Source: Candidatus Staskawiczbacteria bacterium
GTDB lineage: Bacteria; Patescibacteriota; Minisyncoccia; Minisyncoccales; Staskawiczbacteraceae
Reading direction: 5' to 3'
DNA length: 64,000 nucleotides
Assembly (NCBI GenBank): GCA_026395295.1
Contig: JAPLYZ010000012.1
Coordinates: 65,299 to 129,298, forward strand
The position numbers were made by a program, and so were the translations under genes. This document shows, in pieces, positions 16,856 through 60,743 of this stretch (the first letter of the stretch is position 1; each line of letters opens with the position of its first letter). The notes beneath the pieces were generated by a model. The model was not told where the DNA came from, searched no databases, and saw only the letters and a list, made by a program, of their open reading frames with translations.

Positions 16856-17413
16856 ATGGTTGAGAAAAAAATTACTAAAAAAACAATTGAAAAAGTTGAA
16901 GAAATAAAGGAAGAGGTAAAAACTCCGACTGTTGAGGTTTCGTCAGTTTCGGCAGAAGATGTGGCAGAAGATGACATTTCAGAGGAAATTGCTAAGTCTA
17001 TTAAAGAAACATCCGGTAAAGCAGATCGTTATTTTGAGGCAATTGGCAGAAGGAAAACCGCGGTTGCAAGAGTGCGCCTTTTTACAAAAGGGGACAAAGA
17101 ATTTATTGTAAACAATCAGCCATACCAGCAATATTTTCAAACAGAAGAAGACAAAGAGTCGTCTGTTGCTTCAATGAAAAAAATGAAATGTCTGGACAAG
17201 TTTAGGGTAACAGTAAAAGTGAAAGGCGGGGGACACAGGGCTCAGGCCGAGGCTATAAGGCACGGCACAGCCAGGGTGTTGGTGGATTTTAATGCAAATT
17301 TCAGAAAGCGCTTAAGAAAGGCAGGATTTTTAACAAGAGATCCAAGAATGAGAGAAAGGAAGAAATTTGGCTTAAAGCGCGCCAGAAAATCTCCACAGTG
17401 GGCAAAGAGGTAA
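16856..17413 (+). CDS. rpsI: 30S ribosomal protein S9 (acidic N-terminal extension); the last 7 nt (end of Lys codon, Arg codon, stop) are supplied by prophage DNA
   Basis: GRRKTAVARVRL, GGGHRAQAEAIRHGTARVL, LTRDPRMRERKKFGLKRARKSPQWAKR*. The attL core lies in codons PQWAK. Confidence 0.9.
   Translation: MVEKKITKKTIEKVEEIKEEVKTPTVEVSSVSAEDVAEDDISEEIAKSIKETSGKADRYFEAIGRRKTAVARVRLFTKGDKEFIVNNQPYQQYFQTEEDKESSVASMKKMKCLDKFRVTVKVKGGGHRAQAEAIRHGTARVLVDFNANFRKRLRKAGFLTRDPRMRERKKFGLKRARKSPQWAKR
17393..17406 (+). repeat. attL core (shared with attR 60688-60701)
   Basis: CCACAGTGGGCAAA is identical at both prophage ends. Both copies are in frame as P-Q-W-A-K and are followed by R-stop with different codons (AAG AGG TAA versus AAA CGT TAA). 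Confidence 0.7.
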
Positions 17414-17448
17414 TGGGGAACGGTTAACGGCCTGTAAAACGATTTAAA

Positions 17449-17479
17449 AGTAACAGTTTGACGACTGCTACTTTTTTTT
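17449..17479 (+). terminator. Phage-borne rho-independent terminator now serving rpsI
   Basis: AGTAACAG/CTGCTACT stem (1 mismatch), 8-nt loop, then TTTTTTT. Confidence 0.6.
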
Positions 17480-17524
17480 CGTTGGAAAAAGGTCGAAAGT
17501 GGCAGAAATCACAATAAAACCATT

Positions 17525-17692
17525 ATGTCACCCGAATTAAAACAAAAATTAAACCAGCAATATTACGTGCCGTTTTTTGATTATCTTCCAAAAAAAGAAA
17601 ACGGAACGATTGATTGGATTGAAACAATCGGCGCACCAATCGCAGTCGCTGGTATCGCGTTGTTTGGGTATCTTTGGTTCCGATATTTATGA
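17525..17692 (+). CDS. Small membrane protein (55 aa)
   Basis: Read by eye: MSPELKQKLNQQYYVPFFDYLPKKENGTIDWIETIGAPIAVAGIALFGYLWFRYL*; one TM helix; stop overlaps the next start (ATGA). Confidence 0.4.
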   Translation: MSPELKQKLNQQYYVPFFDYLPKKENGTIDWIETIGAPIAVAGIALFGYLWFRYL

Positions 17693-17871
17693 GAACATCT
17701 AACGACGAATATATTTTGCCAGACGGTAAAATAATATCGCTCGGTCAAGACCAACAACCACCAAAAGAAGCAAGAATATGGAACGGATACGACTACCAAA
17801 ATCAGTACTGGGTATATCAAGGAAAAAGAGATACCCGGACGTTGACCGAGTTGAGAGCGTCAAAAATATAA
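17689..17871 (+). CDS. Hypothetical phage protein
   Basis: ATG overlapping the upstream stop; within track ORF 17674..17871. Confidence 0.4.
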   Translation: MRTSNDEYILPDGKIISLGQDQQPPKEARIWNGYDYQNQYWVYQGKRDTRTLTELRASKI

Positions 17872-17889
17872 ATTATAAATCTAATTAAA

Positions 17890-18459
17890 ATGGACACTAT
17901 AAAAAGATATTTAGCTCAATATCCGGATAGGGTAACAAAAAATGACTATCTGGAATTGGCTAAAAAGAATGAGAAAGGAGTGCCGATGTCAACAGGAGTC
18001 CACATTGTTACATTATTAAAGTGTGAAAATGCCACAAGAGATACTGAATATCGTGGCGAAGAAAAAGGAATTAACTTAATTGTTGACGAAGACGGTGTTG
18101 AAAAGAAATATTTTGTTCCGATGTTTGTAACAGATAAAAATTCTCCTAACTACGGAAAATTTCATTATTTGTTTCAAAAGTTTGAGGATATTGAAGAGGA
18201 CACAATGCTTGAAATGGAATTTGTCAGAAAAGGGGCCAGAGGATATGTAGATGTGAGAATACACGATGTTGGAAATAATATAAAAGATAACAAAGCAGAC
18301 ACGAACGATATACCAGTGATTGAAGAAACAAAAGACGGACACTACAAGGGAGAAGTAAGGGGAGTGACTCCGTCAGTGCAAGCAAGGAGAACAGAGGGAG
18401 TGAAATTTCCAAAAGAAAACTTGGAGAAAGAGATCGACGTTCGCGATATTCCGTTTTAA
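17890..18459 (+). CDS. Hypothetical phage early protein
   Basis: 189-aa ORF in the co-oriented early block. Confidence 0.55.
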   Translation: MDTIKRYLAQYPDRVTKNDYLELAKKNEKGVPMSTGVHIVTLLKCENATRDTEYRGEEKGINLIVDEDGVEKKYFVPMFVTDKNSPNYGKFHYLFQKFEDIEEDTMLEMEFVRKGARGYVDVRIHDVGNNIKDNKADTNDIPVIEETKDGHYKGEVRGVTPSVQARRTEGVKFPKENLEKEIDVRDIPF

Positions 18460-18592
18460 CAAATGTGACGGTGTACCGAAATTTAGACCTTTTCTGCATC
18501 GTTGAAGCCGGCGACAACAGGTTGTTCACACCTTAAAACGCCGGCACCAAAAATTATGATAAAAGATTTAAGAAAACCTACAACCAAAATCT

Positions 18593-19225
18593 ATGGAACA
18601 CAAATATAAGATAAAGGACGAGAGTGGAGATAAAAAATACTTTACTCAAATTCCTAATATGATTGTTAATCACTCGACTGCCTACGAGCAAAGTTTATAT
18701 CTTATAATGAAAAGATTGGCTGGAGAGGGCGGACAATGTTATGCTTCTCTTAATTTTTTGGCTTCTAAAATGGGAATACATAAAACGACCGTAACCAAAA
18801 CAATAGCCAAGCTTTTAAAAAGAAAATGGATAGAAGAGACCTCTAAAACAAAAGTCCCGGGAGGGTTCACGAGAACCTTTATAATAATAGATTTATGGAA
18901 GTTAAATATAGACAATTATGGAGGTGGTGCTGAAATGACCACTGGACAACCACTGGACGACCAGTGCATAACTCCGGGAGGTGGAGCTATAAAAAACGGA
19001 GGTGGAGCTGTGGTAGACGGAGGTGGTGCCCAAACCGATACAAGTAAGATTAAGAATAAGATTAAAGAAGAAGAGACGGCGAATTCTTCTTCTTTTAAAA
19101 GAAAACGGTATTACGGGAGACTCGAAATGCGCTTTGCACAAGGTAAGTGGTGGGTCATACCAGAGGACGGGGGAGATTGGTTAGAGTTTGATATGAGGTT
19201 TTTTAAGGACACCGTAGAAAAATAA
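18593..19225 (+). CDS. Winged-helix/HTH protein, putative replication initiator (DnaD/O-like)
   Basis: YFTQIPNMIV...LYLIMKRLAG..GQCYASLNFLASKMGIHKTTVTKTIAKLLKRKWI HTH region, then a Gly-repeat linker carrying iteron-like DNA repeats. Confidence 0.45.
   Translation: MEHKYKIKDESGDKKYFTQIPNMIVNHSTAYEQSLYLIMKRLAGEGGQCYASLNFLASKMGIHKTTVTKTIAKLLKRKWIEETSKTKVPGGFTRTFIIIDLWKLNIDNYGGGAEMTTGQPLDDQCITPGGGAIKNGGGAVVDGGGAQTDTSKIKNKIKEEETANSSSFKRKRYYGRLEMRFAQGKWWVIPEDGGDWLEFDMRFFKDTVEK
18920..19029 (+). repeat. Iteron-like 11-mers inside the initiator gene (candidate ori)
   Basis: GGAGGTGG(T/A)GC at 18920, 18977, 18998 and 19019; the last three are spaced exactly 21 bp. CCACTGGAC occurs at 18939 and 18950, followed by CCAGTG. 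Confidence 0.4.
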
Positions 19226-19227: not shown

Positions 19228-19662
19228 ATGTGGAACAGAAATCAAGTCGATGAAAATTTAAAGACAGGGAGGGGAATATTGGAGTCTGCTTTTTACACCT
19301 ATAAATCAATGATGATGTCTTATAGGTTTCCGAGTGTTTTTTACAAGAAGTACGTGAACGACAAAACAATACACGTTGGAATAAACACTGGCAATTATGT
19401 TTTAGCGGCCACTCCGGTGATTTTTGGGAATATAGTGTCGGTCAACAAGAAAGTGTGGAAGTGCCGTAAACCTATAATCCTTTATGTGGGAGAAGCGCAC
19501 GCCTTTTATCTGATAAAACAAAAAGAAGTTAAGGACGCAAAAGAAATTAGTTTTCCAAACTGCACACTGATAAATTTTGATATTCACGCCGGTGTTAATC
19601 TTACCAAGATTTTTCCTGAATACACCGAAGAGGAAAAAGAAAAAAAGTTAATGGGGTTTTAA
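19228..19662 (+). CDS. Hypothetical phage protein
   Basis: 144-aa ORF, 2-nt gap from the upstream gene. Confidence 0.55.
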   Translation: MWNRNQVDENLKTGRGILESAFYTYKSMMMSYRFPSVFYKKYVNDKTIHVGINTGNYVLAATPVIFGNIVSVNKKVWKCRKPIILYVGEAHAFYLIKQKEVKDAKEISFPNCTLINFDIHAGVNLTKIFPEYTEEEKEKKLMGF

Positions 19663-19666
19663 AAAT

Positions 19667-20095
19667 ATGCCACTTAAAAATTATACAACAACAGTGCCAG
19701 CAGACAGGAGCATTCAAGAGATCCAAAATTCGCTCGTGAAGAACGGGGCTGTGGGAGTGATGTATCAGTACGAAAAGGGAACCGGGAGAATATCTGCATT
19801 GGTTTTTAGACTGCCGGTTAAAGAAAGATTGGTTTCATTTTCCTTACCGGTTAATTGGCGTAATTTTCAAGAGGTTTTGAAACAACAAGAAGTTAGACGC
19901 TGGGACGATGAAGATTATTGCTACCGAGTGGCGTGGAGAGATATTCGTGATTGGGTGCTGGCTCAAATGGCTCTCTATGAAACAACGATTGTAGAATTGC
20001 CGCAGGTTTTCTTGCCGTTTGCCACAGATGATAAGGGTAAAACGGTGTACGACAAATTATTAAATAATAAATTTCTCTTGGGAGAGGGAAATTAA
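19667..20095 (+). CDS. Hypothetical phage protein
   Basis: 142-aa ORF in an operon-like array. Confidence 0.55.
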   Translation: MPLKNYTTTVPADRSIQEIQNSLVKNGAVGVMYQYEKGTGRISALVFRLPVKERLVSFSLPVNWRNFQEVLKQQEVRRWDDEDYCYRVAWRDIRDWVLAQMALYETTIVELPQVFLPFATDDKGKTVYDKLLNNKFLLGEGN

Positions 20096-20102
20096 AAATC
20101 AA

Positions 20103-20276
20103 ATGAAAGGGCCAATGTTACCAAAGTGGATGTGGGTTAAGGGAAAAAGCAAAAACTTTTACCCAAGACTTAAACAGGAGGGGATAGCTTTTGGAGTTAA
20201 TCCCTGGCTGGGACAAATGATCGATAGTCCTATGAGCCAACTGATTAGAAAATTAAAAAAAGAATTGAAAAAATAA
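20103..20276 (+). CDS. Hypothetical small phage protein (57 aa)
   Basis: Read by eye: MKGPMLPKWMWVKGKSKNFYPRLKQEG...KLKKELKK*. Confidence 0.35.
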   Translation: MKGPMLPKWMWVKGKSKNFYPRLKQEGIAFGVNPWLGQMIDSPMSQLIRKLKKELKK

Positions 20277-20280
20277 ATTT

Positions 20281-20457
20281 ATGGAATTAGATAAAGGTTC
20301 AAAAATTTTAATTCAGCATTTAAAAGATTTATTGGCAGAAGCCGAAGCCGGAGCGTTTGGTGATTTCACTAATAGTGAATACGCCGCTCCAAAAATGATG
20401 TTGGCAGAGAAGTTTAATCAATTAAGGTTGAATGTTATTAGTGGTAAATATGATTAA
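20281..20457 (+). CDS. Hypothetical small phage protein (58 aa)
   Basis: Read by eye: MELDKGSKILIQHLKDLLAEAEAGAFGDFTNSEYAAPKMMLAEKFNQLRLNVISGKYD*. Confidence 0.4.
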   Translation: MELDKGSKILIQHLKDLLAEAEAGAFGDFTNSEYAAPKMMLAEKFNQLRLNVISGKYD

Positions 20458-20460
20458 ACA

Positions 20461-20928
20461 ATGGAAAATATTATAAACGTCCCAATTTACTTCTTAAAGG
20501 ATTTGCCGAAACTCCCTTTGATGGATATTCAGGAGAGAGAGTTAAGGCTCTACGTTATGATAACTTGGCCACAGGGGTACATACTCCCTATGGAGATACC
20601 GCTGGGAGTCGCTCTGATAGCCTCCTACGACTTGGACGATGCCATTGTGAAGAGCAACACGGTAGTGCCGCAATTCAATATGTTAAAGAATATTGGGTAT
20701 AAGCCGGTTAAAGATATTTTGGGAGTTGTAGATGTGGGAGGGGCGACTGTTGTGAGACCGGAGACGACACCGCCAGAGGTGCAGGCGGAAATATCCTTTG
20801 AGCAGTTCCGCCAAAGATTGCTTTTAGCGCGGGATCAGTTCTGTCCATTAGAGGATAGGAAAACTCTGACAGAAATTATCCAGCGATTAAAATTAAAGGT
20901 CGAGGAAAAAATAGAAAATAATAATTAA
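20461..20928 (+). CDS. Hypothetical phage protein
   Basis: 155-aa ORF. Confidence 0.55.
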   Translation: MENIINVPIYFLKDLPKLPLMDIQERELRLYVMITWPQGYILPMEIPLGVALIASYDLDDAIVKSNTVVPQFNMLKNIGYKPVKDILGVVDVGGATVVRPETTPPEVQAEISFEQFRQRLLLARDQFCPLEDRKTLTEIIQRLKLKVEEKIENNN

Positions 20929-20932
20929 ATTT

Positions 20933-21286
20933 ATGGCTGAAAAATATTGTCATATTTTCGCCCACTGGTTCAACTCGTTAGGATTTGCATCACACAGGGC
21001 AAGCCATAGAAGAAAAAATAAAATGGAAAATTCAAATACAGGTTCAGTACCCGGAGGACAAACAACCCCTTTAACGTTCGGACAAAAAGCCGTAGGGATA
21101 ACATTCAATCCGGGCGGGGATCTTAATGTTGCAAAAGCAAAACAACTTTGTGCGGAGGCGATTGATTTACTTATTGCTACTCCGTTTGATGTCGGAAGCG
21201 AAGGAGCGGCAATGAAAGAAGAAGCTATTAGGCAACTTCAAACAGCTCAAATGTGGGCTGTAAAAGTTATTACGTGGAAAGAATAA
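20933..21286 (+). CDS. Hypothetical phage protein (start may be ATG 21023)
   Basis: 117-aa ORF; an internal Met (MENSNTG) is an alternative start. Confidence 0.45.
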   Translation: MAEKYCHIFAHWFNSLGFASHRASHRRKNKMENSNTGSVPGGQTTPLTFGQKAVGITFNPGGDLNVAKAKQLCAEAIDLLIATPFDVGSEGAAMKEEAIRQLQTAQMWAVKVITWKE

Positions 21287-21302
21287 AAGTCGAATTATAA
21301 AA
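21286..21302 (+). promoter_or_regulatory. Copy 1 of the phage intergenic motif AA(A/G)GTCG(A/C)ATTATAAA
   Basis: AAAGTCGAATTATAAAA directly after a stop codon, 19 nt before ATG 21321. Confidence 0.35.
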
Positions 21303-21320
21303 AGCAATAATTAAATAAAA

Positions 21321-21518
21321 ATGTCAGACTTAAATTTAAAGTGTGCTGACTGCAAAGGGGATTTCGTTTTTACAGAGGGCGAACAAAAATTCTTTACCCA
21401 AAAGGGTTTTACTCCTCCGCGAAGATGTCCGGGTTGCAGAGCAATAAATAAGCGAAAGAAACAGGAGAGAGAACAAGGGGGCAACGACAAGGGTTGGGAT
21501 AGAGGAAATAATTGGTAA
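21321..21518 (+). CDS. Zinc-ribbon protein
   Basis: CADCKGDFVFTEGEQKFFTQKGFTPPRRCPGCR: two CxxC pairs with the conserved F.F...EQ.F...GF..P.RC..CR pattern. Confidence 0.55.
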   Translation: MSDLNLKCADCKGDFVFTEGEQKFFTQKGFTPPRRCPGCRAINKRKKQEREQGGNDKGWDRGNNW

Positions 21519-21560
21519 TTAAAAGGTCGGCCAATAATATTAACCATAATATATTTTAAA

Positions 21561-21659
21561 ATGAACTTTGAAGATGATGACGATTTCGAAGACGACGATG
21601 AGGAGGACGAGTCGGATGACCCGGATGGAGATGCAGAAGATGAGGGCTCCGACGATTAA
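21561..21659 (+). CDS. Hyper-acidic 32-aa peptide
   Basis: Read by eye: MNFEDDDDFEDDDEEDESDDPDGDAEDEGSDD*; 23 of 32 residues are D or E. Confidence 0.35.
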   Translation: MNFEDDDDFEDDDEEDESDDPDGDAEDEGSDD

Positions 21660-21669
21660 CAATTAAAAA

Positions 21670-21886
21670 TGCTGGGGTGCTTAATTCCGGGCTTTCCGCA
21701 ACTTCCCTCGCCACATAAAGTAAGCAACTTCTTCCAACACAAAGAGTTGATCCGTGAATGGGAAGAAATTATCGGATTACATTCTGAAATATGTATTTAG
21801 GAGGGTATGATTCACAATTTTACCCGAAGCTATAATCGGGTTTATAGCAATCAGATGAGTTGTCCCCGGAGCTAAGCACCCCAGCA
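21670..21886. repeat. 22-nt terminal inverted repeats bracketing a 217-bp segment (MITE-like or structured RNA)
   Basis: TGCTGGGGTGCTTAATTCCGGG (21670-21691) versus CCCGGAGCTAAGCACCCCAGCA (21865-21886): 20/22 complementary; A-runs on both outer flanks. Confidence 0.4.
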
Positions 21887-21897
21887 AAAATAGTCGA

Positions 21898-22092
21898 ATG
21901 GGTTTAACTCCAAGACCAGAGTATGCTGGCAAATCAAAATATATACAGACCACAAAGATTTTAGTTGAATGCTCGAAGTGCAAGCACGAGTACTGGATTA
22001 AGCAGGACGATTTTGATGTTTCGCATATGCAAAATTGCCACTGGTGCAAAGAGTTGGCCGAAGCAACAAGAGTTATAAGCGATAACACTTAA
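21898..22092 (+). CDS. Small CxxC...CxxC protein
   Basis: ECSKCKHEYW...NCHWCKE; 64 aa. Confidence 0.45.
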   Translation: MGLTPRPEYAGKSKYIQTTKILVECSKCKHEYWIKQDDFDVSHMQNCHWCKELAEATRVISDNT

Positions 22093-22096
22093 TTTT

Positions 22097-22270
22097 ATGC
22101 CTATTTTAACTATCAAAATTATAGTGGAGGCAGACACACCGGCGAGCAAACATCTTCTTAACAATGAGAATTACGCAGTGTTTGAAACAAAGGAAGATGA
22201 CGCAACGTTCGCAATGGTGCAAAGGCGTGTAGGTTCGGGGTTAGAGGAAGATAATAAAAAAGATAAATAA
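22097..22270 (+). CDS. Hypothetical small phage protein (57 aa)
   Basis: Read by eye: MPILTIKIIVEADTPASKHLLNNENYAVFETKEDDATFAMVQRRVGSGLEEDNKKDK*. Confidence 0.35.
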   Translation: MPILTIKIIVEADTPASKHLLNNENYAVFETKEDDATFAMVQRRVGSGLEEDNKKDK

Positions 22271-22275
22271 AACTT

Positions 22276-22422
22276 ATGGCAAACAAAAAAGCATTACAAA
22301 GAGAAATGAAATTAGTTGCGAGAATGGTGGCTCTTAATATTGAAAGCATTGTGGTTCAAAGGGACGAGAAAGGAAATTACGTGGGGGCAATAATAACAAA
22401 AAAAGACGATGCCAGCAAATGA
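22276..22422 (+). CDS. Hypothetical small phage protein (48 aa)
   Basis: Read by eye: MANKKALQREMKLVARMVALNIESIVVQRDEKGNYVGAIITKKDDASK*. Confidence 0.35.
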   Translation: MANKKALQREMKLVARMVALNIESIVVQRDEKGNYVGAIITKKDDASK

Positions 22423-22543
22423 TATTATACACGCCGTTGAGGACTGCCCGGATTTAGATTTTACTGATCCGATTGTTTGCGATACGTGGGTTAAGGTCAA
22501 AAGAATAATTATTGAAAAACAATTAGAAGAAAATGAAGATTAA
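22409..22543 (+). CDS. Hypothetical small phage protein (44 aa)
   Basis: Read by eye: MPANDIIHAVEDCPDLDFTDPIVCDTWVKVKRIIIEKQLEENED*; overlaps both neighbours. Confidence 0.3.
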   Translation: MPANDIIHAVEDCPDLDFTDPIVCDTWVKVKRIIIEKQLEENED

Positions 22544-22940
22544 AATATTTTACGAACCAATTTATAACACTCATTTGTTGCTTTTGTATGAATGCAATTA
22601 TATTGAGGCAGAACATTATTTTTCAAAAAATAAAATTAGAACTGATTTGATAAAATGTTCTGGACAGACCGGAACTTATCGCGTGGAGAAGCCAGACGGC
22701 TCCAGCCAAAAAAGATATTATATTTATATTGAAAAAACTGACAAAGGTTGGATTGAGGATATATCTACGATTTTGCACGAGATTTCGCATTTGGTTTTTA
22801 TGTCTTTGTTTGATTGCGGAATAGAAATAAATCCGAAAACGGACGAAACATTTTCTTATTATTTTGAGTGGTGGTTTAAAACCTTAATAAATTCTTTGAC
22901 TCCGAAAAAGAGGGCAAAACGGAAAAAACGACGCAATTAA
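22533..22940 (+). CDS. Small HExxH zinc-metallopeptidase-like protein
   Basis: STILHEISHLVF motif; basic tail KKRAKRKKRRN; 135 aa. Confidence 0.45.
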   Translation: MKIKIFYEPIYNTHLLLLYECNYIEAEHYFSKNKIRTDLIKCSGQTGTYRVEKPDGSSQKRYYIYIEKTDKGWIEDISTILHEISHLVFMSLFDCGIEINPKTDETFSYYFEWWFKTLINSLTPKKRAKRKKRRN

Positions 22941-23029: not shown

Positions 23030-23458
23030 ATGGTATTTAAACCCGGAGATAAAAGACCAAAAGGAGCAGGTATTAAGCGAGGTCAGAAGACAAAGAAAAC
23101 TCTCGAACAAGAGGCGGCTTTGGATTTGTATAAAAAAAGAATACTTGATAATTTAGTTCCCTTTATTCGTGCGCAATTTAATCAGGCAGAGGGAATGACT
23201 GTAATGTTTCAGCGGCGAAAGCAGAAAAATAAAAAGACGGGGAAATTTGAACGCACAGGTGAACTTGTTAGGGTTATGGATATAAACAGAGTTGAGCAGT
23301 TGTTAAAGAGCGATGGGCAAGGAGAGAATTATTATTACATCACAACTAAAGATCCGAATGTAAAAGCGCTTGAGAATTTGTTTAACAGGGTTTTTGGTAA
23401 GCCGAAAGAAAGTATTGAGGTAGAACACAAAGGCAGTAAGGTTATAATTCTTGATTAA
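23030..23458 (+). CDS. Putative terminase small subunit
   Basis: 142-aa basic protein immediately upstream of terminase large subunit; called by position and size only. Confidence 0.4.
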   Translation: MVFKPGDKRPKGAGIKRGQKTKKTLEQEAALDLYKKRILDNLVPFIRAQFNQAEGMTVMFQRRKQKNKKTGKFERTGELVRVMDINRVEQLLKSDGQGENYYYITTKDPNVKALENLFNRVFGKPKESIEVEHKGSKVIILD

Positions 23459-23461: not shown

Positions 23462-24868
23462 ATGGAAGAATCTGAAAAAGTAAATTTCTCTGATTTTGTT
23501 AAGTGGACTCCCAAACAACGAGAGGCAGATTTGGCAACAAAGAATTACAAATATATTTTATATGGCGGAGCTATGGGAGGAGGCAAGAGTTATTGGTTGC
23601 GCTGGGAGGGAATAAAATTGTTAATGTATTATTGGGGAAAATATAAATTAAGCGGTGTGATGGTTGGTTTATTTTGCGAAGATTATCCGGCATTGAAAGA
23701 TAGGCATTTGAGCAAAGTTAAATTTGAGTTTCCAACTTGGCTTGGCACATATTCAGCGCAAGACCATAATTTTATTTTATCCTCTGATTACGGCGGAGGG
23801 ATATTGGGATTTAGAAACCTTGACGATGTTTCAAAATATCAGTCGTCAGAGTTTGCGGCCGAATTGGTTGATGAGCTTACAAAAAACGATAAAGAGACGT
23901 TTGATTTTTTAAGAACCCGATTAAGGTGGCCCGGAATTGAAGATACAAAGTTTCTTGCCGGAACCAACCCGGGAGGAATCGGACACGTGTGGGTTAAAAA
24001 TATGTGGATTGATAAAAAGTTTGACGACAACGAGCAAGAGAAAGATAAGTTTGCTTTTATACAAGCAAAGGCCGCGGATAATCCGCATATCGCACAGAGT
24101 TATTATAAATCGCTTGAGAGTTTGCCTGAGGGGCTACGCAAGGCTTTTCTTGAGGGAGATTGGGATTTATTCAAAGGGCAGTTTTTTGGTGAATGGAGAC
24201 GCAATATACACGTCTGCAAGCCCTTTCAGATACCGAGCGACTGGAAGAAATTTGTTTGCGGAGATTATGGATTTGCTAAACCTGCGGCAGTTTATTGGAA
24301 CGCAGTCAGTCCGGACGGAGTAATTTATATCTATCGAGAACTTTATTGCATAGAGCATACTTTTTCAGATTTAGCCAAAAAGATTATTGCAATGACTCCC
24401 GAATCAGAAGAACTTAAGTATTGGGTGTTTGATCCGAGCATTTGGTCAAAGAAAGGAGAATCGGAGTTATCCGGAGCTGAAATAATGCAAAGTGTTTATC
24501 GGGAGATAATGAAAAAGTCATTGATGCTTTTGCAGGGAAACAATGACAGGATTAACGGCGCGCGGGTGTTTAGGGAATACTTGAAACCATATTTGCAAGA
24601 GGAAATGATTACGGCCAAGTTGCAGGTGTTTGAGAATTGTATGGAGTTTATAAGAACCGTGCCGGCATTAGTTTATGACGCAACAAAAGTTGAGGATTGC
24701 GACACCGACGGAGAAGATCATTCATATGACAGCGAAAGATATGGTTTAATGTCGGCTCCGACTCCGGCCATTACTTCTGATAAGTTGAAACAAAAATTAT
24801 TTAACGAAAGAATGAGAAGAAATAAAGAACGCAACAAATCAAAGAATAAATTTTTTAGAATGGTATGA
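23462..24868 (+). CDS. terL: Terminase large subunit
   Basis: Walker A ILYGGAMGGGKSYW, Walker B-like AAELVDELT, C-terminal nuclease region with acidic motifs (CGDYGF, DTDGEDHSYD); 468 aa. Confidence 0.9.
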   Translation: MEESEKVNFSDFVKWTPKQREADLATKNYKYILYGGAMGGGKSYWLRWEGIKLLMYYWGKYKLSGVMVGLFCEDYPALKDRHLSKVKFEFPTWLGTYSAQDHNFILSSDYGGGILGFRNLDDVSKYQSSEFAAELVDELTKNDKETFDFLRTRLRWPGIEDTKFLAGTNPGGIGHVWVKNMWIDKKFDDNEQEKDKFAFIQAKAADNPHIAQSYYKSLESLPEGLRKAFLEGDWDLFKGQFFGEWRRNIHVCKPFQIPSDWKKFVCGDYGFAKPAAVYWNAVSPDGVIYIYRELYCIEHTFSDLAKKIIAMTPESEELKYWVFDPSIWSKKGESELSGAEIMQSVYREIMKKSLMLLQGNNDRINGARVFREYLKPYLQEEMITAKLQVFENCMEFIRTVPALVYDATKVEDCDTDGEDHSYDSERYGLMSAPTPAITSDKLKQKLFNERMRRNKERNKSKNKFFRMV

Positions 24869-25329: not shown

Positions 25330-25434
25330 ATTTAATAAAATTGTTTGCCTCCGCTTGGAAGAGCCACTCGGCTCTCGCCCAAAGGGGCTTCGAAAGACAC
25401 TGAAGTAATCGGTGCTTTTCGAAGCCCCTTTTTT
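25330..25434 (+). ncRNA. Candidate ~105-nt terminated transcript (sRNA, or antitermination-controlled leader of the portal/head operon)
   Basis: Lies between the promoter above and a strong intrinsic terminator; contains hairpin AGAGCC-actc-GGCTCT; no plausible ORF. Confidence 0.35.
25384..25434 (+). terminator. Strong intrinsic terminator 15 nt upstream of the portal start
   Basis: 12-bp stem GGGGCTTCGAAA/TTTCGAAGCCCC (25384-25395 / 25417-25428) followed by TTTTTT. Confidence 0.7.
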
Positions 25435-25449
25435 GTTTGTATAAAACTT

Positions 25450-27513: not shown

Positions 27514-27888
27514 ATGAAGCTATTTATAATTCGCGTTCTTTTGCGGCTTCTCCACATTGAGTTAAGTCCGATAGACGCAAAGAGGGTAAAGATGTTTTTA
27601 TGGACAGCTTACCCCCAACAAGGCTTTCAGGATTATATCAAAGAGCGTGATATGTCGATCCTGCAAGAAATGGGGAATGGGCTTACCCGTGAAGATTATC
27701 TTATCAAATTAGGGCAGAGGATAGAGATTGGAATGTTAAAATCTCAATCCAAAGTGTCCTTTGAAAGAATTGAACGGGAGAGACAGGACAAAATTGAGGC
27801 AATGAAAATTCAGGCAGAGAAGAGAGCAAAGGAAGCGAAGAAAGAACAGCTCAAAAAAGGTGAAGACACTGAAAACAAAACAGATTAA
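27514..27888 (+). CDS. Hypothetical head-module protein
   Basis: 124-aa ORF with a charged coiled-coil-like C-terminus. Confidence 0.45.
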   Translation: MKLFIIRVLLRLLHIELSPIDAKRVKMFLWTAYPQQGFQDYIKERDMSILQEMGNGLTREDYLIKLGQRIEIGMLKSQSKVSFERIERERQDKIEAMKIQAEKRAKEAKKEQLKKGEDTENKTD

Positions 27889-28434: not shown

Positions 28435-28480
28435 TTCTCATAAGAAGGTGAGCGGCCTTTTAAAAAACGCTTTAAAACCT

Positions 28481-55943: not shown

Positions 55944-56291
55944 ATGGAAACAACAATTTTAAAAGTTAGTGATACAGAAATTAAAAGAGTGAGAATAATC
56001 CCCGAGAAAGTTATCCCCGAGCAGAGGACAGAGGAAACTATCTCTTTATCGGAAGTTAGAACTCAATTAAATACAGTTTTGAAACAAATAGAAGTTATGG
56101 AAATTGAGAGAGCAAATTACTTGAAACCAGTAGACGCTTCGCTTGCGATTAAATATGCAGAGAGGGACGCATTGCAAGATGAGATGTCGCAAGCAGAGGA
56201 ACTTGGAGTGAAGATTGAGTTGCCAAAGGTTGAACCAACTCCAGACGAGAAATTGCCAGAGGAACAATTAAACGACACTACACCAAAATAA
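55944..56291 (+). CDS. Hypothetical coiled-coil protein
   Basis: 115-aa ORF. Confidence 0.45.
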   Translation: METTILKVSDTEIKRVRIIPEKVIPEQRTEETISLSEVRTQLNTVLKQIEVMEIERANYLKPVDASLAIKYAERDALQDEMSQAEELGVKIELPKVEPTPDEKLPEEQLNDTTPK

Positions 56292-56575
56292 TGGAACAAG
56301 AAACCAAAATTGAAAAGTGGTATGAAACTAAAATCACATTCCTAATAGCCACACTTACCCCTTTGGTTATAATTATGGCTTTCCTTTTTGGTATGCAGAA
56401 AGATATTGCAGTCATTCAGACAAACATTACGAACATAAATACCAATCACGAAGTTCACATTCAGGATATTGAGGAGAGCATAAAAGATTTGCAGAACCAG
56501 CAAGTGATTCAAAATAACACAATGACTGATTTGCAAAAACAGATTATTGCTTTATTGCAATCAATGAAAAAATAG
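56291..56575 (+). CDS. Single-pass membrane coiled-coil protein (lysis-associated candidate)
   Basis: TM helix ITFLIATLTPLVIIMAFLFG followed by a coiled coil; start overlaps the upstream stop. Confidence 0.45.
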   Translation: MEQETKIEKWYETKITFLIATLTPLVIIMAFLFGMQKDIAVIQTNITNINTNHEVHIQDIEESIKDLQNQQVIQNNTMTDLQKQIIALLQSMKK

Positions 56576-56924
56576 CTCTTTGAGAAAGTTAGATAACAAA
56601 TAAACCAAAAAAGAAAGAAATGAATGAATACACAATACTGTAAACCCAACCAAAATGCTCAACCTGTGGTGCATTTTTTCCAAGAGCGTGGTTCGCGAAT
56701 GGACAAGCATCATCGCAAGGCACAACACTCTGCTGGTGTTCAGGAAAGTGCAGAACAAACTTTGCCGAAAAGGCAAAACGCGAGGAACGTAATGCCATCT
56801 GCATTGCACAACAGGTTCATCTTGCATACAGGCATTCGGTAAAAACTGGAATACCCATCAGAGTGATGGGATAGACTACTAAGAATTACTTAGTAGTTCG
56901 GAAAGGAGGTGGATTATCTCCCGT

Positions 56925-58031
56925 ATGAGAACTGCGGGTTATCAGTTCTCAACATTTTTAGAAGCAATTTTATTATCAGAGGGGATTGATAATAAAAAAA
57001 TTAGAAGCAATTATAAGCAATTACAATTAAACAATAAAAATATGTGGTTCAAAAATTTAATAAAATATCTAATGGGCAAAGTTGAAGAAACCCCAATACC
57101 AGACGGATTTATTTCCAGTCCTCCAGATTTTAGGGATGTTAAAGCATCAGATATTTTAGGCGATGTAAGCACGGCGGAAAATCCAACACCGGACAACGTA
57201 TCTTGCCCTTATGTTTTGACGCAAAAGAATCAAGGTTTGCTTCCTATTTGCGTTGGAGAAAGCGGGGCCACAATAAACGAATACGAAAAACGAAGGCAGG
57301 AAATAGCCGTAGAATTTGACGGCCAATGGTTATATGACGAATGCAAGAAGATTGACGGATTGCCGGCAGGAACGCAGGGGACTTACTTTAGAGCTGTATT
57401 ATCGGTCTTAAAGAATAAGGGAGCCAAGCCAGTGGGCGGAAAGGAGGAAGACGCAGGAAACTACAAAATAGCAGGATATGTGCAGGTAGAACCCAATTTT
57501 GACGCTATAAAGCGGGCTATATGGAAATGGGGGACTGTTCTTATGGGTTTTAGGGTTTATACTGGCGGAAGTTGGAATGCGTCTCCGATAAAAATTCCGT
57601 CCGGGAGTAAAGTATCTGGCGGACACGCGACAGTTGGAAAGGCTTTTACAAAAGAATTTATCCGGGGACAGAATAGTTTTGGCGCCGGGTGGGGAAGTAA
57701 TGGAGATTTTGATTTTGGGTCAGAATTTCTTCCTTATGAATGCTGGGCGGTTGTCCAAGATATTCCGACAACTCTTTTGCCAGATCAGAACAATAAGCCA
57801 AAACATACATTCACTGTTAATTTGTTGCCCGGGTACAACAGCGATGAAGTAAAGATTTTGCAGGATTGCTTGAAGTGGTTAGGCTGTATGGCAAAAACAC
57901 AGGCAAGCACCGGATTATATGGACAGATTACGATTGACGCAGTTAAAAATTTTCAAGGTCGCTACGGGATAACAACCACGGGAAACGTGGGACCGTTGAC
58001 TATATTACAATTAAATAAATTATTCCAATGA
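56925..58031 (+). CDS. Endolysin candidate: papain-like (C1-type) cysteine peptidase plus C-terminal peptidoglycan-binding domain
   Basis: DFRD..., NQGLLPICVGES (Cys), SGGHATVG (His), GQNSFGAGWGSNGDF. C-terminal LYGQITIDAVKNFQGRYGITTTGNVGPLT. AAAGGAGGTG lies upstream of ATG 56925; ATG 57042 is an alternative start. Confidence 0.6.
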   Translation: MRTAGYQFSTFLEAILLSEGIDNKKIRSNYKQLQLNNKNMWFKNLIKYLMGKVEETPIPDGFISSPPDFRDVKASDILGDVSTAENPTPDNVSCPYVLTQKNQGLLPICVGESGATINEYEKRRQEIAVEFDGQWLYDECKKIDGLPAGTQGTYFRAVLSVLKNKGAKPVGGKEEDAGNYKIAGYVQVEPNFDAIKRAIWKWGTVLMGFRVYTGGSWNASPIKIPSGSKVSGGHATVGKAFTKEFIRGQNSFGAGWGSNGDFDFGSEFLPYECWAVVQDIPTTLLPDQNNKPKHTFTVNLLPGYNSDEVKILQDCLKWLGCMAKTQASTGLYGQITIDAVKNFQGRYGITTTGNVGPLTILQLNKLFQ

Positions 58032-58246
58032 ACAAAATTATAAGAAGCATTTTGATAGTTTTAGCAGTTTTAGCAATCGTAGCTTCAATCGCCGGCAATG
58101 TATATTATTTCGGCTGGTTGAACTTGCAAAATTCCTTAATGCAGAAAGGATACAACACGGCCCTGCAACAAGTGATTCAGGCGGTTCAGGCACAAGGGTT
58201 GGTTAAAATAGGGGATTATACTTTGATTTTGCAACCTAAAAAATAA
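58028..58246 (+). CDS. Small membrane protein (lysis cassette)
   Basis: N-terminal TM helix IIRSILIVLAVLAIVASIAGNVYYFGW; overlaps the endolysin stop. Confidence 0.45.
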   Translation: MNKIIRSILIVLAVLAIVASIAGNVYYFGWLNLQNSLMQKGYNTALQQVIQAVQAQGLVKIGDYTLILQPKK

Positions 58247-58347
58247 TGACAGACCATACAATAGCAATAATAATTTCTGGGGTATTTTGTCTCCTCATCC
58301 TATGTGTTATAGGAGTAGGTTTAATTTGCCGCAGAGATTGCGAATAA
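58246..58347 (+). CDS. 33-aa membrane peptide (lysis cassette)
   Basis: Read by eye: MTDHTIAIIISGVFCLLILCVIGVGLICRRDCE*. Confidence 0.35.
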   Translation: MTDHTIAIIISGVFCLLILCVIGVGLICRRDCE

Positions 58348-58348
58348 A

Positions 58349-58621
58349 ATGACAATGCCAAAATTTTTAACAAGTAGCGTAGACCCCGAGAAAATATCGC
58401 TGACTGTAAAAGGAGTTATAGTTGCGATTGTGCCAATCGTGATAACGATTGCCGGCTTAACTCATTTAAATTTGGGACAGGCAGATATAACCGCGCTGGG
58501 CGATGGGTTGATTAACTTGGTAAATTTAATAGCTCAGCTGACCGCCGCGATTATGGTTGTGTGGGGTATAGCAAGAAAAATAGGAGTTGGACTGGGTTTA
58601 ATAAATCCGGTGCAGAAATAA
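58349..58621 (+). CDS. Holin-like membrane protein
   Basis: 90 aa with 2-3 hydrophobic helices (GVIVAIVPIVITIAGL, LINLVNLIAQLTAAIMVVWGIA). Confidence 0.45.
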   Translation: MTMPKFLTSSVDPEKISLTVKGVIVAIVPIVITIAGLTHLNLGQADITALGDGLINLVNLIAQLTAAIMVVWGIARKIGVGLGLINPVQK

Positions 58622-58668: not shown

Positions 58669-58739
58669 GAGCTCAATTTCTCTTTTATATTGATTTTATA
58701 ACAAGAGTGTTTTTCTGTCAACGAAGAAAGCGTCTTTTA

Positions 58740-59156
58740 TTATAAAGTTTCGTTCCAACTGTCCGTCAATGATTTTTTATAGAATATCCGGTATCCGACA
58801 TATCCAAAAGATAAAATTGTCGAAATAAAATAAACAAAAGGAGCGGATATTTCTATTAAAATTATCGTCTGCCATATCAACAGGACAATAAATGTGTTTT
58901 TATAATAGGTTTTTCCCATAAATTCGAGTACTATCTGCAATCCTACGAAAACAGCCACAGCATAAAAGAAAAAGTATAAAAACATCATCCAAAATAATGA
59001 CTGGTTAACTTGGGAACAATCAATCCAGCGATTATTCTCGCAATTATTTATTATATTCATTATAAAATTTAAAAATAAATTTGTTAAAAATACTACTGCA
59101 GTAAACAGTAATATTGATATTGCCCACTTAAATATGTGTTTTGTTTTTTCCTCCAT
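58740..59156 (-). CDS. Four-TM membrane protein, opposite strand (lysogeny-expressed candidate)
   Basis: 138 aa with about four hydrophobic helices. Sits between the lysis cassette and integrase, with its own terminator. Confidence 0.6.
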   Translation of the reverse strand: MEEKTKHIFKWAISILLFTAVVFLTNLFLNFIMNIINNCENNRWIDCSQVNQSLFWMMFLYFFFYAVAVFVGLQIVLEFMGKTYYKNTFIVLLIWQTIILIEISAPFVYFISTILSFGYVGYRIFYKKSLTDSWNETL

Positions 59157-59309
59157 ATATGTTATTTAAATTTTAATAATATAGTATTGCTTTAATGGTA
59201 ACTTTTTTTAAGAAATTGACAAGGGTTTTTGAAAGGAATAATGTGAAACCACAAAATTAAAAAATAATTAATAACACGTTGTGTCCGAAAGGACAAGGCG
59301 AGAAAAATC

Positions 59310-59337
59310 TTGCCTGACACTACCAACGTGGTATAAT
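59310..59337 (+). promoter_or_regulatory. Candidate promoter upstream of the integrase leader
   Basis: TTGCCT (59310-59315), 16-nt spacer ending TGG, TATAAT (59332-59337). A second match is TTGACA-17-TAATGT at 59216-59244. Confidence 0.45.
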
Positions 59338-59343
59338 AAAAAA

Positions 59344-59445
59344 TGCAGGAGCAATCCTGCAACCACACGTGTGGTTTACGCCCAACCGAGCAATCGGCTG
59401 GAACGAGCATTATACCCGGGAGTAGTGTCCCGGGTTTTGCTTTCT
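59344..59445 (+). promoter_or_regulatory. Highly structured ~100-nt leader ending in a terminator-like hairpin directly before the int start codon
   Basis: TGCAGGA-GCAA-TCCTGCA (59344-59361). 14-bp palindrome ACCACACGTGTGGT (59362-59375). CCAACCGA-GCAA-TCGGCTGG (59382-59401). ACCCGGGA-gtagtg-TCCCGGGT (59414-59435), then TTTGCTTTCT and ATG. Confidence 0.5.
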
Positions 59446-60357
59446 ATGAAAGTAAAAGAACAGTTTGAACCGTTCGTTCAGTACAAGGTAAAACAGGGAT
59501 GCGCCCAGCATACTATCACAGAGTATAGGCGTTTCATTTCTGAAACCTTATCGTGCATTGCTGAGAAAAAACTCAGCCAGTTAAGAGTTATAGATCGTGT
59601 TGATATTATGGAGTTGGGTCGACAACACGGTTATTGGGGAGAACAAAGAGCGGTCAGCACATTCAGGCAGTTTTGCCAGTATCTTAATGATAAAGGCGAG
59701 AAACTGCCTTTTCGTTTTCAAGACATATTGGTGCCGTCAGTTATTGAGCGCGAGCAGGATTATTTATTGCCCGAAGAGTTTGAGGACTTTATGAATAAAA
59801 TCCCGTTGGACTTTTACGGATTAAGAGACAGATGTTTGTATGAATTGTTATGGTCAACCGGTTGTAGAATAGGAGAGGCATTGGCAATAAATATAGACGA
59901 CATAAATTTCAAAGAGAAAGAAATAAAGGTCAAAACATTCAAAGGGGGAGAGGGGACACGGGTTTTCATTTCAGAGCGTATGGAGGGGTGGCTGAAAGAA
60001 TGGCTGGCAAAAAGAGGCGATAATTGTCCGGCATTATTCATTGTATATTTTGGCGACATTGTGCGACTTAAAAGGAGTATGTCAAACAAACGATTGCTGG
60101 CTTACAGAAAAGCATTCAGGATTACAAAAAAGATTTCACACAAAGCATTCAGGACAGGGTTTGCAACTTATTTAATGGAGCAGGGAGCCAACATAAAAGA
60201 AGTGCAGGTTTTATGCAGACATCGTTCTCCGCGCACGACATTAAAGAGTTATCTGAAATATCAGAAAACAAAAGTCAAAGACGTTCACCAGAATATATTT
60301 AACAACCTCACTTCGAAGTTTAAAAATATAATTCGGGAGACGGCAGAAGTCTGGTAA
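59446..60357 (+). CDS. int: Tyrosine recombinase / phage integrase
   Basis: Catalytic pattern TGCRIGEAL (Arg), HKAFRTGFAT (H..R), LCRHRS...TLKSYL (H...Y). ATG 59446 is used because track start 59281 reads through the promoter and leader hairpins. Confidence 0.9.
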   Translation: MKVKEQFEPFVQYKVKQGCAQHTITEYRRFISETLSCIAEKKLSQLRVIDRVDIMELGRQHGYWGEQRAVSTFRQFCQYLNDKGEKLPFRFQDILVPSVIEREQDYLLPEEFEDFMNKIPLDFYGLRDRCLYELLWSTGCRIGEALAINIDDINFKEKEIKVKTFKGGEGTRVFISERMEGWLKEWLAKRGDNCPALFIVYFGDIVRLKRSMSNKRLLAYRKAFRITKKISHKAFRTGFATYLMEQGANIKEVQVLCRHRSPRTTLKSYLKYQKTKVKDVHQNIFNNLTSKFKNIIRETAEVW

Positions 60358-60429
60358 AAAAGTTATCCACACCCTCAAAATGTTAGGTGGGCTTGACACG
60401 CTTCTTTGATATGATAAAATTAAAATTGT

Positions 60430-60582
60430 ATGAAAAAAGATAATCTTAAAAAACCTATCTACAAAAAGATTGAAGCTCAAAAACTTCGTCGGCTTTATCG
60501 TAAAGATGAACAACTGGTCAGAGTCGCAAGAGTAGCCCGGGAATTGTGGAATATCTTAAAAGAAGTTAAGGAAACAAAATAG
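60430..60582 (+). CDS. Small basic protein (50 aa) between int and attR
   Basis: Read by eye: MKKDNLKKPIYKKIEAQKLRRLYRKDEQLVRVARVARELWNILKEVKETK*. Confidence 0.3.
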   Translation: MKKDNLKKPIYKKIEAQKLRRLYRKDEQLVRVARVARELWNILKEVKETK

Positions 60583-60687
60583 ATATTTGAAAGTTCAAAG
60601 AGGTAATTTTATCGCCAAACTGCCAAAATCGTAAGCATTTAACCGTTCTACAGCGCGTCTTTCGTCCCAAAGTGGTACTTTATACCA

Positions 60688-60743
60688 CCACAGTGGGCAA
60701 AACGTTAATAATTACAAGAGCCGCCTTTGGGCGGTTTTTGGTT
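60688..60743 (+). repeat. attR core plus native rpsI 3' end and terminator; left copy of the 50-bp direct repeat
   Basis: CCACAGTGGGCAAA (60688-60701) equals attL. 60694-60743 is identical to 61730-61779. It contains ...TGG GCA AAA CGT TAA and the hairpin CCGCC-tttg-GGCGG followed by TTTTT. Confidence 0.75.

Follow-up and report, generated by a model that had tools for sequence, protein, structure and literature searches.

The DNA analysed in this work is a 64,000-nucleotide stretch (hereafter the window) of contig JAPLYZ010000012.1, from Candidatus Staskawiczbacteria bacterium, in which a host gene block (adk, map, ..., infA, rpmJ, rpsM, rpsK, rpsD, rpoA, rplQ, rplM, rpsI), ending at 17413, meets a 43-kb element (17407-60701) that carries its own integrase and is inserted at the 3' end of rpsI, the final gene of the rpoA-rplQ-rplM-rpsI block. 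We consider it highly probable that this element is a complete-looking temperate prophage, with a double-stranded DNA genome and a short-tailed (podovirus-type) virion. Between its two attachment (att) cores lie approximately 52 genes, all but two on the plus strand; the prophage is 93% coding and has a GC content of 0.40 (against 0.37-0.38 in the host flanks). An initial annotation, made from the sequence alone, had described an apparently intact phage with about 60 genes packed on one strand: the strand bias is confirmed, with the two exceptions that it named (38114-38446 and 58740-59156 are indeed the only minus-strand genes), while the count comes down to the figure just given. The gene order that it proposed, from an early block through the small and large terminase subunits (TerS and TerL), portal, scaffold and capsid to fibres, a giant protein, lysis genes and integrase, proved correct in Pfam and PHROG searches. 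The features that delimit the insertion are the following:

16856-17413, plus strand: rpsI (ribosomal protein S9), the integration target (Pfam Ribosomal_S9 1.3e-39)
17393-17406, plus strand: attL core CCACAGTGGGCAAA, inside the last rpsI codons; continues GAGGTAA
17446-17483, plus strand: AT-rich 12-pair hairpin followed by a T run, a terminator-like site
59281-60357, plus strand: tyrosine integrase (Pfam Phage_integrase 4.4e-26, PHROG_1 4e-33)
60393-60582, plus strand: promoter-like site TTGACA-16-TAAAAT with TG (60393-60420) and a 50-residue basic protein (60430-60582), between the integrase gene (int) and attR
60688-60701, plus strand: attR core; continues ACGTTAA (the native S9 tail), then the rpsI terminator hairpin (60715-60740)

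The 14-bp sequence CCACAGTGGGCAAA occurs exactly twice in the window, at the two cores listed, and the S9 frame is restored at both copies, which bears out the matching att cores of the initial annotation, as do the library matches its right-end tyrosine integrase. Exact and maximal direct repeats of at least 14 bp number 53 in the window, so that a repeat of this length is not rare there and the assignment of the att sites rests on context and position, not on the repeat itself. This context is specific: the left and right core continuations both translate to ...PQWAKR-stop, and S9 is therefore intact, while the attR core lies 330 bp past the integrase stop and is directly followed, on its right, by the strong terminator hairpin. 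Since neither tRNA genes nor Rfam families were found across the whole window, the site is not of the tRNA type. The element has, as temperate prophages do, a site-specific integrase, a defined target and att repeats on either side.

In the mechanism that we propose, the integrase would recombine within the 14-bp core, and the last two S9 codons and the stop would be replaced by synonymous copies, the final codons being supplied by the phage. The phage would also bring a replacement terminator-like hairpin (the one at 17446-17483 is probably a phage-borne substitute for the displaced rpsI terminator), leaving the essential rpsI undisturbed. The attP junction reconstructed in this way (60687|17407) reads ...CTTTATACCACCACAGTGGGCAAAGAGGTAATGGGGAACGG..., and the attB site without phage reads ...AGAAAATCTCCACAGTGGGCAAAACGTTAATAATTAC...; the former contains the 12-nt CAAAGAGGTAAT twice and a 10-nt inverted pair flanking the core, and these repeats could be binding sites for the integrase.

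The host assignment is equally direct. The exact TerL, capsid, giant and integrase proteins, together with the host RpoA, are all found on one 129,872-bp contig of a metagenome-assembled genome (MAG) at NCBI, from Candidatus Staskawiczbacteria bacterium (Patescibacteria group / Parcubacteria group, within the Candidate Phyla Radiation, CPR), in agreement with the CPR-like chromosome of the initial annotation. MAGs can be chimeric, and the repeats at the right end do break short-read assemblies, so a free phage contig could in principle have been wrongly joined or binned to a CPR contig. Nevertheless, the attL junction recurs with 100% identity in independent Logan assemblies from at least five runs (L001, L002, L003, L009, L010), the attR junction is seen at the same identity in three Logan contigs (L005, L007, L008), and a single 44.6-kb Logan contig extends from rplQ through the entire prophage to the right repeat, all of which makes a chimeric assembly very unlikely. 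In addition, the S9 reading frame is restored by the phage end and other CPR contigs carry related elements at this site; we regard an artefact as having a negligible chance of being correct.

Head, tail and early genes

The packaging, head and tail genes of the prophage are:

23030-23458, plus strand: TerS candidate, directly upstream of TerL, with a basic N-terminus
23462-24868, plus strand: TerL (PHROG_979 2.7e-21; Pfam Terminase_3 27.3 bits, above the cutoff of 23.2)
25345-27495, plus strand: portal protein candidate, 716 residues (alternative start at 25450), canonical in size and position
27860-28336, plus strand: 158-residue protein without family match
28403-29113, plus strand: scaffolding protein candidate, charged and of low complexity, between the portal and capsid genes
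29132-29536, plus strand: 134-residue conserved head-module protein without family match
29539-30507, plus strand: major capsid protein, HK97-type family (Pfam Phage_capsid_4 4.1e-16, 60.5 bits, above the cutoff of 27)
33145-34563, plus strand: head-to-tail adaptor (Pfam SU10_adaptor 2.8e-10, 41.4 bits, above the cutoff of 27)
34565-36028, plus strand: tail nozzle (hub) protein (AlphaFold2 model, predicted local distance difference test score, pLDDT, 91.6; predicted template modelling score, pTM, 0.90)
36025-38067, plus strand: tail fibre or spike, with a conserved N-terminal anchor and a variable C-terminus

The virion type is decided by the tail genes. The adaptor is present in 74 of 78 related loci, and the nozzle model, built from a 39-sequence alignment of 34565-36028, was compared with the Protein Data Bank (PDB) using Foldseek: all of the 29 top matches are tail nozzle, hub or muzzle proteins of short-tailed phages. 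The best of them is the Pa223 tail (9nwi_Y, 5.6e-24, TM-score 0.76), with VP1 next (7e-20) and weaker matches to P22 gp10, SU10, Sf6, GP4, T7 gp12 and the crAss001 muzzle (E-values of 3.7e-16 to 7.4e-10). No open reading frame (ORF) matched a tail tube, sheath or tape-measure family in Pfam, PHROG or NCBIfam, an absence that is only as good as these libraries. Based on the adaptor match, the nozzle fold and the lack of tube, sheath and tape-measure families, we conclude that the virion is short-tailed (podovirus-type) and not a new morphotype. The initial annotation, which had likewise recognised no sheath, tube or tape-measure gene (the library scans find none inside the att boundaries), had left the virion as "podovirus-like or novel"; the first term is retained and the second dropped.

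As in the portal-adaptor-nozzle tail machines of P22, T7, SU10, VP1 and Pa223, the prophage has an adaptor of the SU10_adaptor family and a nozzle whose model superposes on the Pa223 and VP1 chains with a TM-score of approximately 0.76 and also on P22 gp10, SU10 and T7 gp12, but its nozzle has only 7-13% sequence identity to theirs. The core genes are without sequence relatedness to those of Kuravirus/SU10, the resemblance existing only at the level of domains and folds, and the prophage stands outside any named genus. PDB sequence searches with the adaptor, the nozzle, the portal, the fibre and the two thirds of the giant protein that lack an assignment returned nothing meaningful, and PDB profile searches with the nozzle and portal alignments returned no match. 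For the tail fibre, relatives align to residues 1-134 only, the C-terminal part varies and the total length ranges from 411 to 1,105 residues; we read it as a fibre or spike because only the first ~130 residues are kept in relatives, as expected of a conserved anchor.

In the head module, TerL has 4,755 homologues, and NCBI records the identical protein as phage terminase large subunit. The TerS candidate, which is without family match, is common to three relatives, the scaffold candidate to 16, and the 134-residue protein, possibly a decoration protein, to 24, in all of which it lies directly upstream of the capsid gene. The capsid protein, assigned to the HK97 type by its sequence family, also matches Mu-like_gpT (Pfam) and the PHROG major head families, and its best counterpart among deposited phages is that of Bacillus phage PK1 (27% identity). 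The portal candidate has a weak Pfam SU10_portal match (6.5e-4, 18.7 bits, below the cutoff of 30), repeated in its homologues on the relatives L091-L093, and no match in the PDB (by sequence or profile) or in 50,697 deposited phage genomes (INPHARED). The proteins encoded at 27860-28336 and 32717-33142 are paralogues (BLASTP, 34% identity, 1e-28), the first gene following that of the portal and the second preceding that of the adaptor. No gene for a prohead protease was detected. A set made up of TerS, TerL, portal, scaffold and capsid, without protease, implies an assembly in the style of P22 or T7, and the order portal-scaffold-capsid-adaptor-nozzle-internal proteins-fibre is one that we take to resemble that of T7.

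The same organisation is found in uncultivated relatives. A scan of IMG/VR with the nozzle alignment returned at least 75 contigs, many of them of 40-51 kb; the alignment-based scan succeeded where single-protein scans of IMG/VR with the integrase and the nozzle had given no useful matches. Metagenomic contigs of 41-44 kb that encode TerL homologues have their head and tail genes in the same order and of near-identical length (in residues, prophage against relatives: TerL 468 vs 468/488, capsid 322 vs 322/323, adaptor 472 vs 474, nozzle 487 vs 488). In a scan of GTDB genomes with the TerL profile, many CPR and non-CPR MAGs shared only TerL, which is therefore a poor marker for the lineage. We also considered a gene transfer agent or a phage-inducible island, and rejected both on account of the element's own integrase, replication initiator, full head and tail set and lysis genes.

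The genes to the left of the packaging module are mostly small:

17525-18459, plus strand: left-end early genes, encoding a 55-residue membrane protein, a 60-residue protein and a 189-residue protein ending in ...DIPF
18593-19225, plus strand: winged-helix protein resembling replication initiators and helicase loaders (Pfam HTH_36 3e-10, DnaD_N 2e-4)
19228-22940, plus strand: approximately 14 small early genes of unassigned function
21321-21518, plus strand: zf_Tbcl match (2.1e-13)
22533-22940, plus strand: PHROG_1365 match (3.4e-13), with an HExxH motif

The left-end genes (17525-18459) have no family match in Pfam, PHROG or NCBIfam, and their ORFs are also called in Logan records; from its C-terminal D-I-P-F tip, the 189-residue protein may resemble single-stranded DNA-binding proteins. 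The winged-helix protein is matched in PHROG by a replication initiation protein (4.7e-12) and a DnaD-like loader (1.2e-7). With an initiator present, and no polymerase, primase or helicase found in the early region (17.5-23 kb), the phage would use the host replisome. Pfam and PHROG searches with ~35 small ORFs gave only the zf_Tbcl and PHROG_1365 matches, a weak HNH-like match and a sub-threshold Acb2/Tad1 hairpin match. The last of these concerns 20933-21286 (117 residues; 18 bits, under the cutoff of 27, with a faint match also in the Logan tables), whose product is possibly a sponge directed against Thoeris or against CBASS (the cyclic-oligonucleotide-based antiphage signalling system).

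The ejection position and the giant DarB-like protein

In T7 and P22, the ejected internal proteins are encoded as three genes after the tail genes. The prophage has three genes in the corresponding position:

38575-39816, plus strand: g31, all-helical protein with a peptidoglycan-binding domain (Pfam PG_binding_1 8.3e-7), first of the three
39834-40754, plus strand: g32, LysM-domain protein (Pfam LysM 2.8e-15), second of the three, with positional homologues in relatives
40758-52469, plus strand: polyvalent DarB-like protein of 3,903 residues, taking up 27% of the prophage, a late gene placed between those of the tail and the fibres

The AlphaFold2 model of g31 (pLDDT 73) comprises the peptidoglycan-binding domain, a disordered linker and a helical C-terminal domain; it gave no fold match, and the C-terminal domain is found in 37 relatives at the same position. 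NCBIfam, applied to ten structural and late proteins, returned LysM and peptidoglycan-binding matches only.

The giant protein combines, in a single polypeptide, several biochemically disparate domains including an LPD domain, which is what characterizes polyvalent proteins, and it contains the dyad of adenine methylase and SNF2 helicase that is typical of P1 DarB. Its Pfam matches are LPD38 (3.1e-14), Helicase_C (1.4e-11), SNF2-rel_dom (8e-9) and Eco57I methylase (1.6e-6), together with ART-PolyVal and PARP matches that are both sub-threshold; in PHROG it matches the DarB-like antirestriction family PHROG_10089 (2e-68) and PHROG_11801 (2.1e-112). The corresponding motifs are NPPY at residue 1643 (methylase) and DEVQ at 2274 (SNF2 helicase), and there is an HEITH at 2921. 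About 2,100 residues (1-1270 and approximately 2780-3650) have no match.

Packaging and injection have been suggested for polyvalent proteins, and DarB shields DNA against type I restriction (PMC5512222). With the P1 DarB and polyvalent proteins described in that work, the giant protein shares the fusion of an N6-adenine methylase (NPPY) with an SNF2 helicase, an ADP-ribosyltransferase (ART)-like and an LPD domain, and the condition of being a huge late-gene product; it differs in its length of 3,903 residues, in the fraction of the genome devoted to it and in its location in a podovirus ejection slot, its antirestriction role being predicted. By analogy, we infer that the giant protein is an ejected anti-defence cargo: it would be packaged in the head and ejected with the DNA, and its DarB dyad, ART-like domain and LPD38 would blunt host restriction and defence at entry.

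The relatives from IMG/VR keep the succession adaptor - nozzle - fibre - g31-like - g32-like - large ORF, the last of which measures between 772 and more than 2,045 residues. In the closest of these relatives (L101, 15314-21445), the slot of the giant gene holds an ORF of more than 2,044 residues with RelA_SpoT, DNA polymerase III beta and RadC/JAB domains; by their domain content, these are polyvalent-type modules, with a cargo different from that of the giant protein. A tentative proposal, which we put forward jointly with the reading of rpsI as an accretion site given below and consider somewhat doubtful, is that, in this podovirus lineage, anti-defence effectors destined for injection occupy a hypervariable slot, the third ejection gene, which in the present phage would have grown to 3,903 residues, or 27% of the genome. 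If true, such a slot would suit hosts that lean on restriction-modification over CRISPR.

Late genes, lysogeny control and prophage activity

The late region, and the two genes on the opposite strand, are as follows:

38114-38446, minus strand: secreted coiled-coil protein with an N-terminal hydrophobic, signal-like segment
52645-55922, plus strand: 311-residue and 780-residue proteins, the latter with a signal-like hydrophobic N-terminus
56291-58621, plus strand: lysis cassette
56291-56575, 58028-58246 and 58349-58621, plus strand: holin candidates, membrane proteins with transmembrane segments
56925-58031, plus strand: endolysin (PHROG peptidase 4.6e-11 and endolysin families; Pfam PG_binding_1 5.9e-12)
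58740-59156, minus strand: membrane protein with four hydrophobic segments

The 311-residue and 780-residue proteins have no family match in Pfam, PHROG or NCBIfam, and only their C-terminal pieces match ORFs of the relative L154, at a different position; they are possibly fibre or receptor-binding modules with shuffled C-termini. The lysis roles of the cassette genes are predicted from their family matches and transmembrane segments. Both minus-strand genes, absent from all 78 related loci, look like morons and are probably expressed from the prophage, the product of 58740-59156 being a candidate for superinfection exclusion. Once circularised, the genome would run int - small basic protein - attP - early genes - packaging and head - tail - ejection slot - fibre-like proteins - lysis cassette.

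The true start of the integrase is probably M56, at 59446, given that NCBI annotates a protein of 303 residues. Its leader (59311-59445) contains a promoter-like TTGCCT-16-TATAAT followed by two hairpins, the second of which (59414-59435) is terminator-like and ends 10 nt ahead of the likely int start, and may be an attenuator of int expression. Past the integrase, the strong promoter-like site at 60393-60420 is directed across attR, and the region 60393-60582 may hold an early promoter, or else encode a recombination directionality factor. Consensus scans for promoters and terminators gave counts at chance level, for which reason only individual sites are cited here. A 72-residue minus-strand ORF (59192-59410) was examined as a repressor and rejected, since its sequence is implausible and it sits in the int leader.

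Several observations weigh against a complete and active temperate phage. The 14-bp repeat, taken by itself, is without statistical significance, and the portal call consists of a sub-threshold match plus synteny. No similarity was detected between the giant protein and the large ORFs of the relatives (which also differ from one another), so that its putative location in the virion derives from gene position. Scans of 17407-60701 with Pfam, PHROG and NCBIfam found no repressor, CI, Cro or Xis/excisionase family, nor any helix-turn-helix (HTH) regulator family except that of the replication initiator, although a novel regulator could escape such libraries; the initial annotation had likewise recognised no CI/Cro-type repressor, and these scans find none inside the att boundaries. 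All recovered copies are 100% identical, which means one strain and thus no population evidence of selection or mobility; the strain is present in the runs SRR20698638-51, ERR153021xx-22xx and ERR11260133. The attP junction (60687|17407), which the initial annotation had suggested as a search target, has no match in IMG/VR, a 29-nt string of the att site and terminator has none in the JGI metagenomes, and neither attP nor an empty attB junction of this strain appeared in the IMG/VR and JGI scans. Finally, the Logan contigs bearing int read 22-30 nt beyond the core and end only within a 50-bp repeat, with no fork at the core, which argues against an abundant excised form in the sampled Logan assemblies.

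Those same observations (integrated junctions only in every assembly that carries the prophage, no recognised repressor or excisionase, identical copies and an attP junction unmatched in IMG/VR) would be expected of a cryptic or defective prophage, unbroken in sequence, that has lost induction or excision and persists as a fixed passenger of the strain. We regard this as unlikely, though worth keeping in mind. The core genes, whose frameshift or truncation the initial annotation had named as grounds for abandoning its reading, are neither truncated nor frameshifted and equal those of the free relatives in length; the att cores are perfect; and the 11.7-kb ORF is uninterrupted, which is improbable after a long neutral decay. 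Moreover, the assemblies searched are whole-community contigs of one strain, in which a rare excision would not show. A temperate phage, presumably active, is the preferred reading. The earlier description as "apparently intact" holds at the level of sequence, the structural genes having the lengths and order of those in the 41-44-kb relatives.

The rpsI tail as a recurrent target

To the right of the prophage, a 1,037-bp mini-element lies between two exact copies of a 50-nt repeat (60694-60743 and 61731-61780), which spans the S9 tail and terminator. With this repeat comes a third, partial att copy, overlooked in the initial annotation. The mini-element has three small genes, none of which is a recombinase in Pfam or PHROG:

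60800-61054, plus strand: HTH_17 gene (Pfam HTH_17 3e-9), MerR-like, matching PHROG excisionase families
61057-61485, plus strand: Doc/Fic toxin (Pfam Fic 8.6e-9; PHROG Doc-like toxin 4.1e-16), with HPFQNGNKR
61513-61707, plus strand: 64-residue membrane protein

Short-read assemblies break because of the 50-bp repeat, and the mini-element forms its own unitig in at least 20 runs. With the Phd-Doc system of phage P1 it shares a Doc/Fic toxin (motif HxFx(D/N)GNKR) encoded after a small DNA-binding protein; the upstream partner here is an HTH_17 protein (excisionase family) and not a Phd/YefM-type antitoxin.

It can be asked whether the prophage and the HTH-Doc pair form one larger mobile unit of 44.4 kb, ending at 61780, with the HTH_17 protein as the phage excisionase or regulator: the third repeat shares TGGGCAAA with attL, the gene at 60800-61054 matches HTH_17 and the PHROG excisionase families, and no excisionase was found inside the 14-bp boundaries. 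Conversely, attL shares 14 bp with the middle copy and only 8 bp with the third, the HTH gene is tightly paired with the Doc toxin in a typical toxin-antitoxin layout, and the GC content of the HTH-Doc unit is 0.33, against 0.40 in the prophage. In another species (L212), the HTH-Doc unit (84% nucleotide and 88-90% amino acid identity) is found at the rpsI tail with no adjacent phage, and the native S9 tail and terminator reappear directly after Doc. The larger unit is accordingly improbable, and on the strength of the phage-free unit we treat the mini-element as a separate tandem insert, not as part of the prophage. Its att-type flanking repeats, the lack of an integrase and the tandem position beside an integrase-bearing element fit the layout of a cis-mobilizable element (CIME), of the kind that remains in tandem with integrative and conjugative elements, the mobility being putative.

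A degenerate scan of the JGI metagenomes for the S9 tail KSPQWAKR-stop gave 80 loci from related species, with 65-78% nucleotide identity over the ribosomal operon. One of them (L202) has rpsI, the terminator and a purM-like gene as an uninterrupted site, the arrangement expected here minus both inserts, and at a second empty site (L193) the 27-nt S9 tail is identical and the hairpin core is also shared. In L195 (JGI contig Ga0265297_10006775), a 14-kb island (243-14345) lies at the rpsI tail, delimited by copies of TCAGTGGGCAAA at 243 and 14331. The island's integrase is 69% identical to that of the prophage and ends 250 bp short of the right core, and its cargo comprises three DNA methylases, an Alw26I-type restriction enzyme and an AAA_13 ATPase. 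A further locus (L227) has a different prophage at the rpsI tail, of which the left end is visible, with homologues of 19667-20095 (82%), 19228-19662 (38%) and 18593-19225 (31%). Judging by the island of L195 and the prophage of L227, this integrase family has repeatedly targeted the rpsI tail in related CPR bacteria.

The right att copy of L195 is followed by sequence resembling the left end of the L212 mini-element, and tandem accretion at the rpsI tail may thus recur. Three other loci (L205, L246, L216) carry an inverted copy of the att core (TTTGCCCACTGTGG) just past the rpsI terminator, which may represent either what is left of an att site or another S9 tail in inverted orientation. A classifier of occupied and empty rpsI sites by the presence of a terminator within 75 nt was dropped as non-discriminating, because inserts carry their own terminators. 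Streptococcal integrative and conjugative elements and integrative and mobilizable elements also integrate at the rpsI 3' end (PMC4701971). The likeness lies in the site and the integrase type, in both cases a tyrosine integrase at the 3' end of the S9 gene that does not inactivate it; the cargo here is instead a phage (or, in L195, a restriction-modification island) and the host phylum is CPR. That the rpsI 3' end of Parcubacteria is a dedicated accretion site, used by one integrase family for cargo as diverse as this 43-kb podovirus, a second prophage and a 14-kb restriction-modification island, is the other half of the joint proposal made above for the effector slot, and shares its tentative standing. 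The integrase-less toxin-antitoxin mini-elements beside the cargo of this site may be mobilised in trans, in a satellite- or CIME-like manner.

Elsewhere in the window, a defence-type insert (1883-5279) lies between map and tpiA, in the ribosomal/secY region; it encodes an OLD-family AAA/TOPRIM nuclease, a NOV_C-domain protein, a Vsr endonuclease and a C5 cytosine methylase fragment of 114 residues, which covers the first 101 of 324 profile positions and is probably truncated. A 3-kb segment (6918-9907) with a GC content of 0.52, against ~0.37 around it, encodes proteins of 539 and 348 residues (the latter with a signal peptide) without Pfam family and is probably a recent foreign acquisition. 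At the right edge of the window, a DDE (rve) transposase gene (63167-63970, minus strand) marks a point where short-read contigs break.

Prophages of Patescibacteria, polyvalent proteins and rpsI-targeting integrases are already known. Ten Paceibacteria prophages, with a mean of 43.7 kb, have been reported from groundwater metagenomes (PMC12455944), and 63.8% of the viral operational taxonomic units of Patescibacteriota were classed as temperate (PMC12911398). These are likewise integrated tailed-phage genomes in ultra-small CPR genomes; the two surveys, which are based on geNomad, CheckV and DRAM-v, differ from the present work in that we found no att sites, virion type or giant effector genes described there. 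Three points may be new, namely that a CPR prophage lineage is assigned to the podovirus type, that accretion at rpsI is recurrent and that the ejection slot holds an oversized effector, with the limit that no literature search was aimed at any of them. Current views are not overturned, lysogeny in Patescibacteria having already been reported as common.

The CPR makes up a large share of bacterial diversity and, to our knowledge, almost nothing is known experimentally about its phages. A fully delimited temperate CPR phage, with exact att sites and target gene, a short-tailed architecture and a candidate injected anti-restriction effector, is a reference for annotating its many uncultivated relatives. 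The integrase/attP/attB set could be tried as a genetic tool for CPR bacteria or their relatives, and the methylase-helicase-ART polyprotein and the peptidase/peptidoglycan-binding endolysin aimed at the CPR cell wall are further parts that can be tested.

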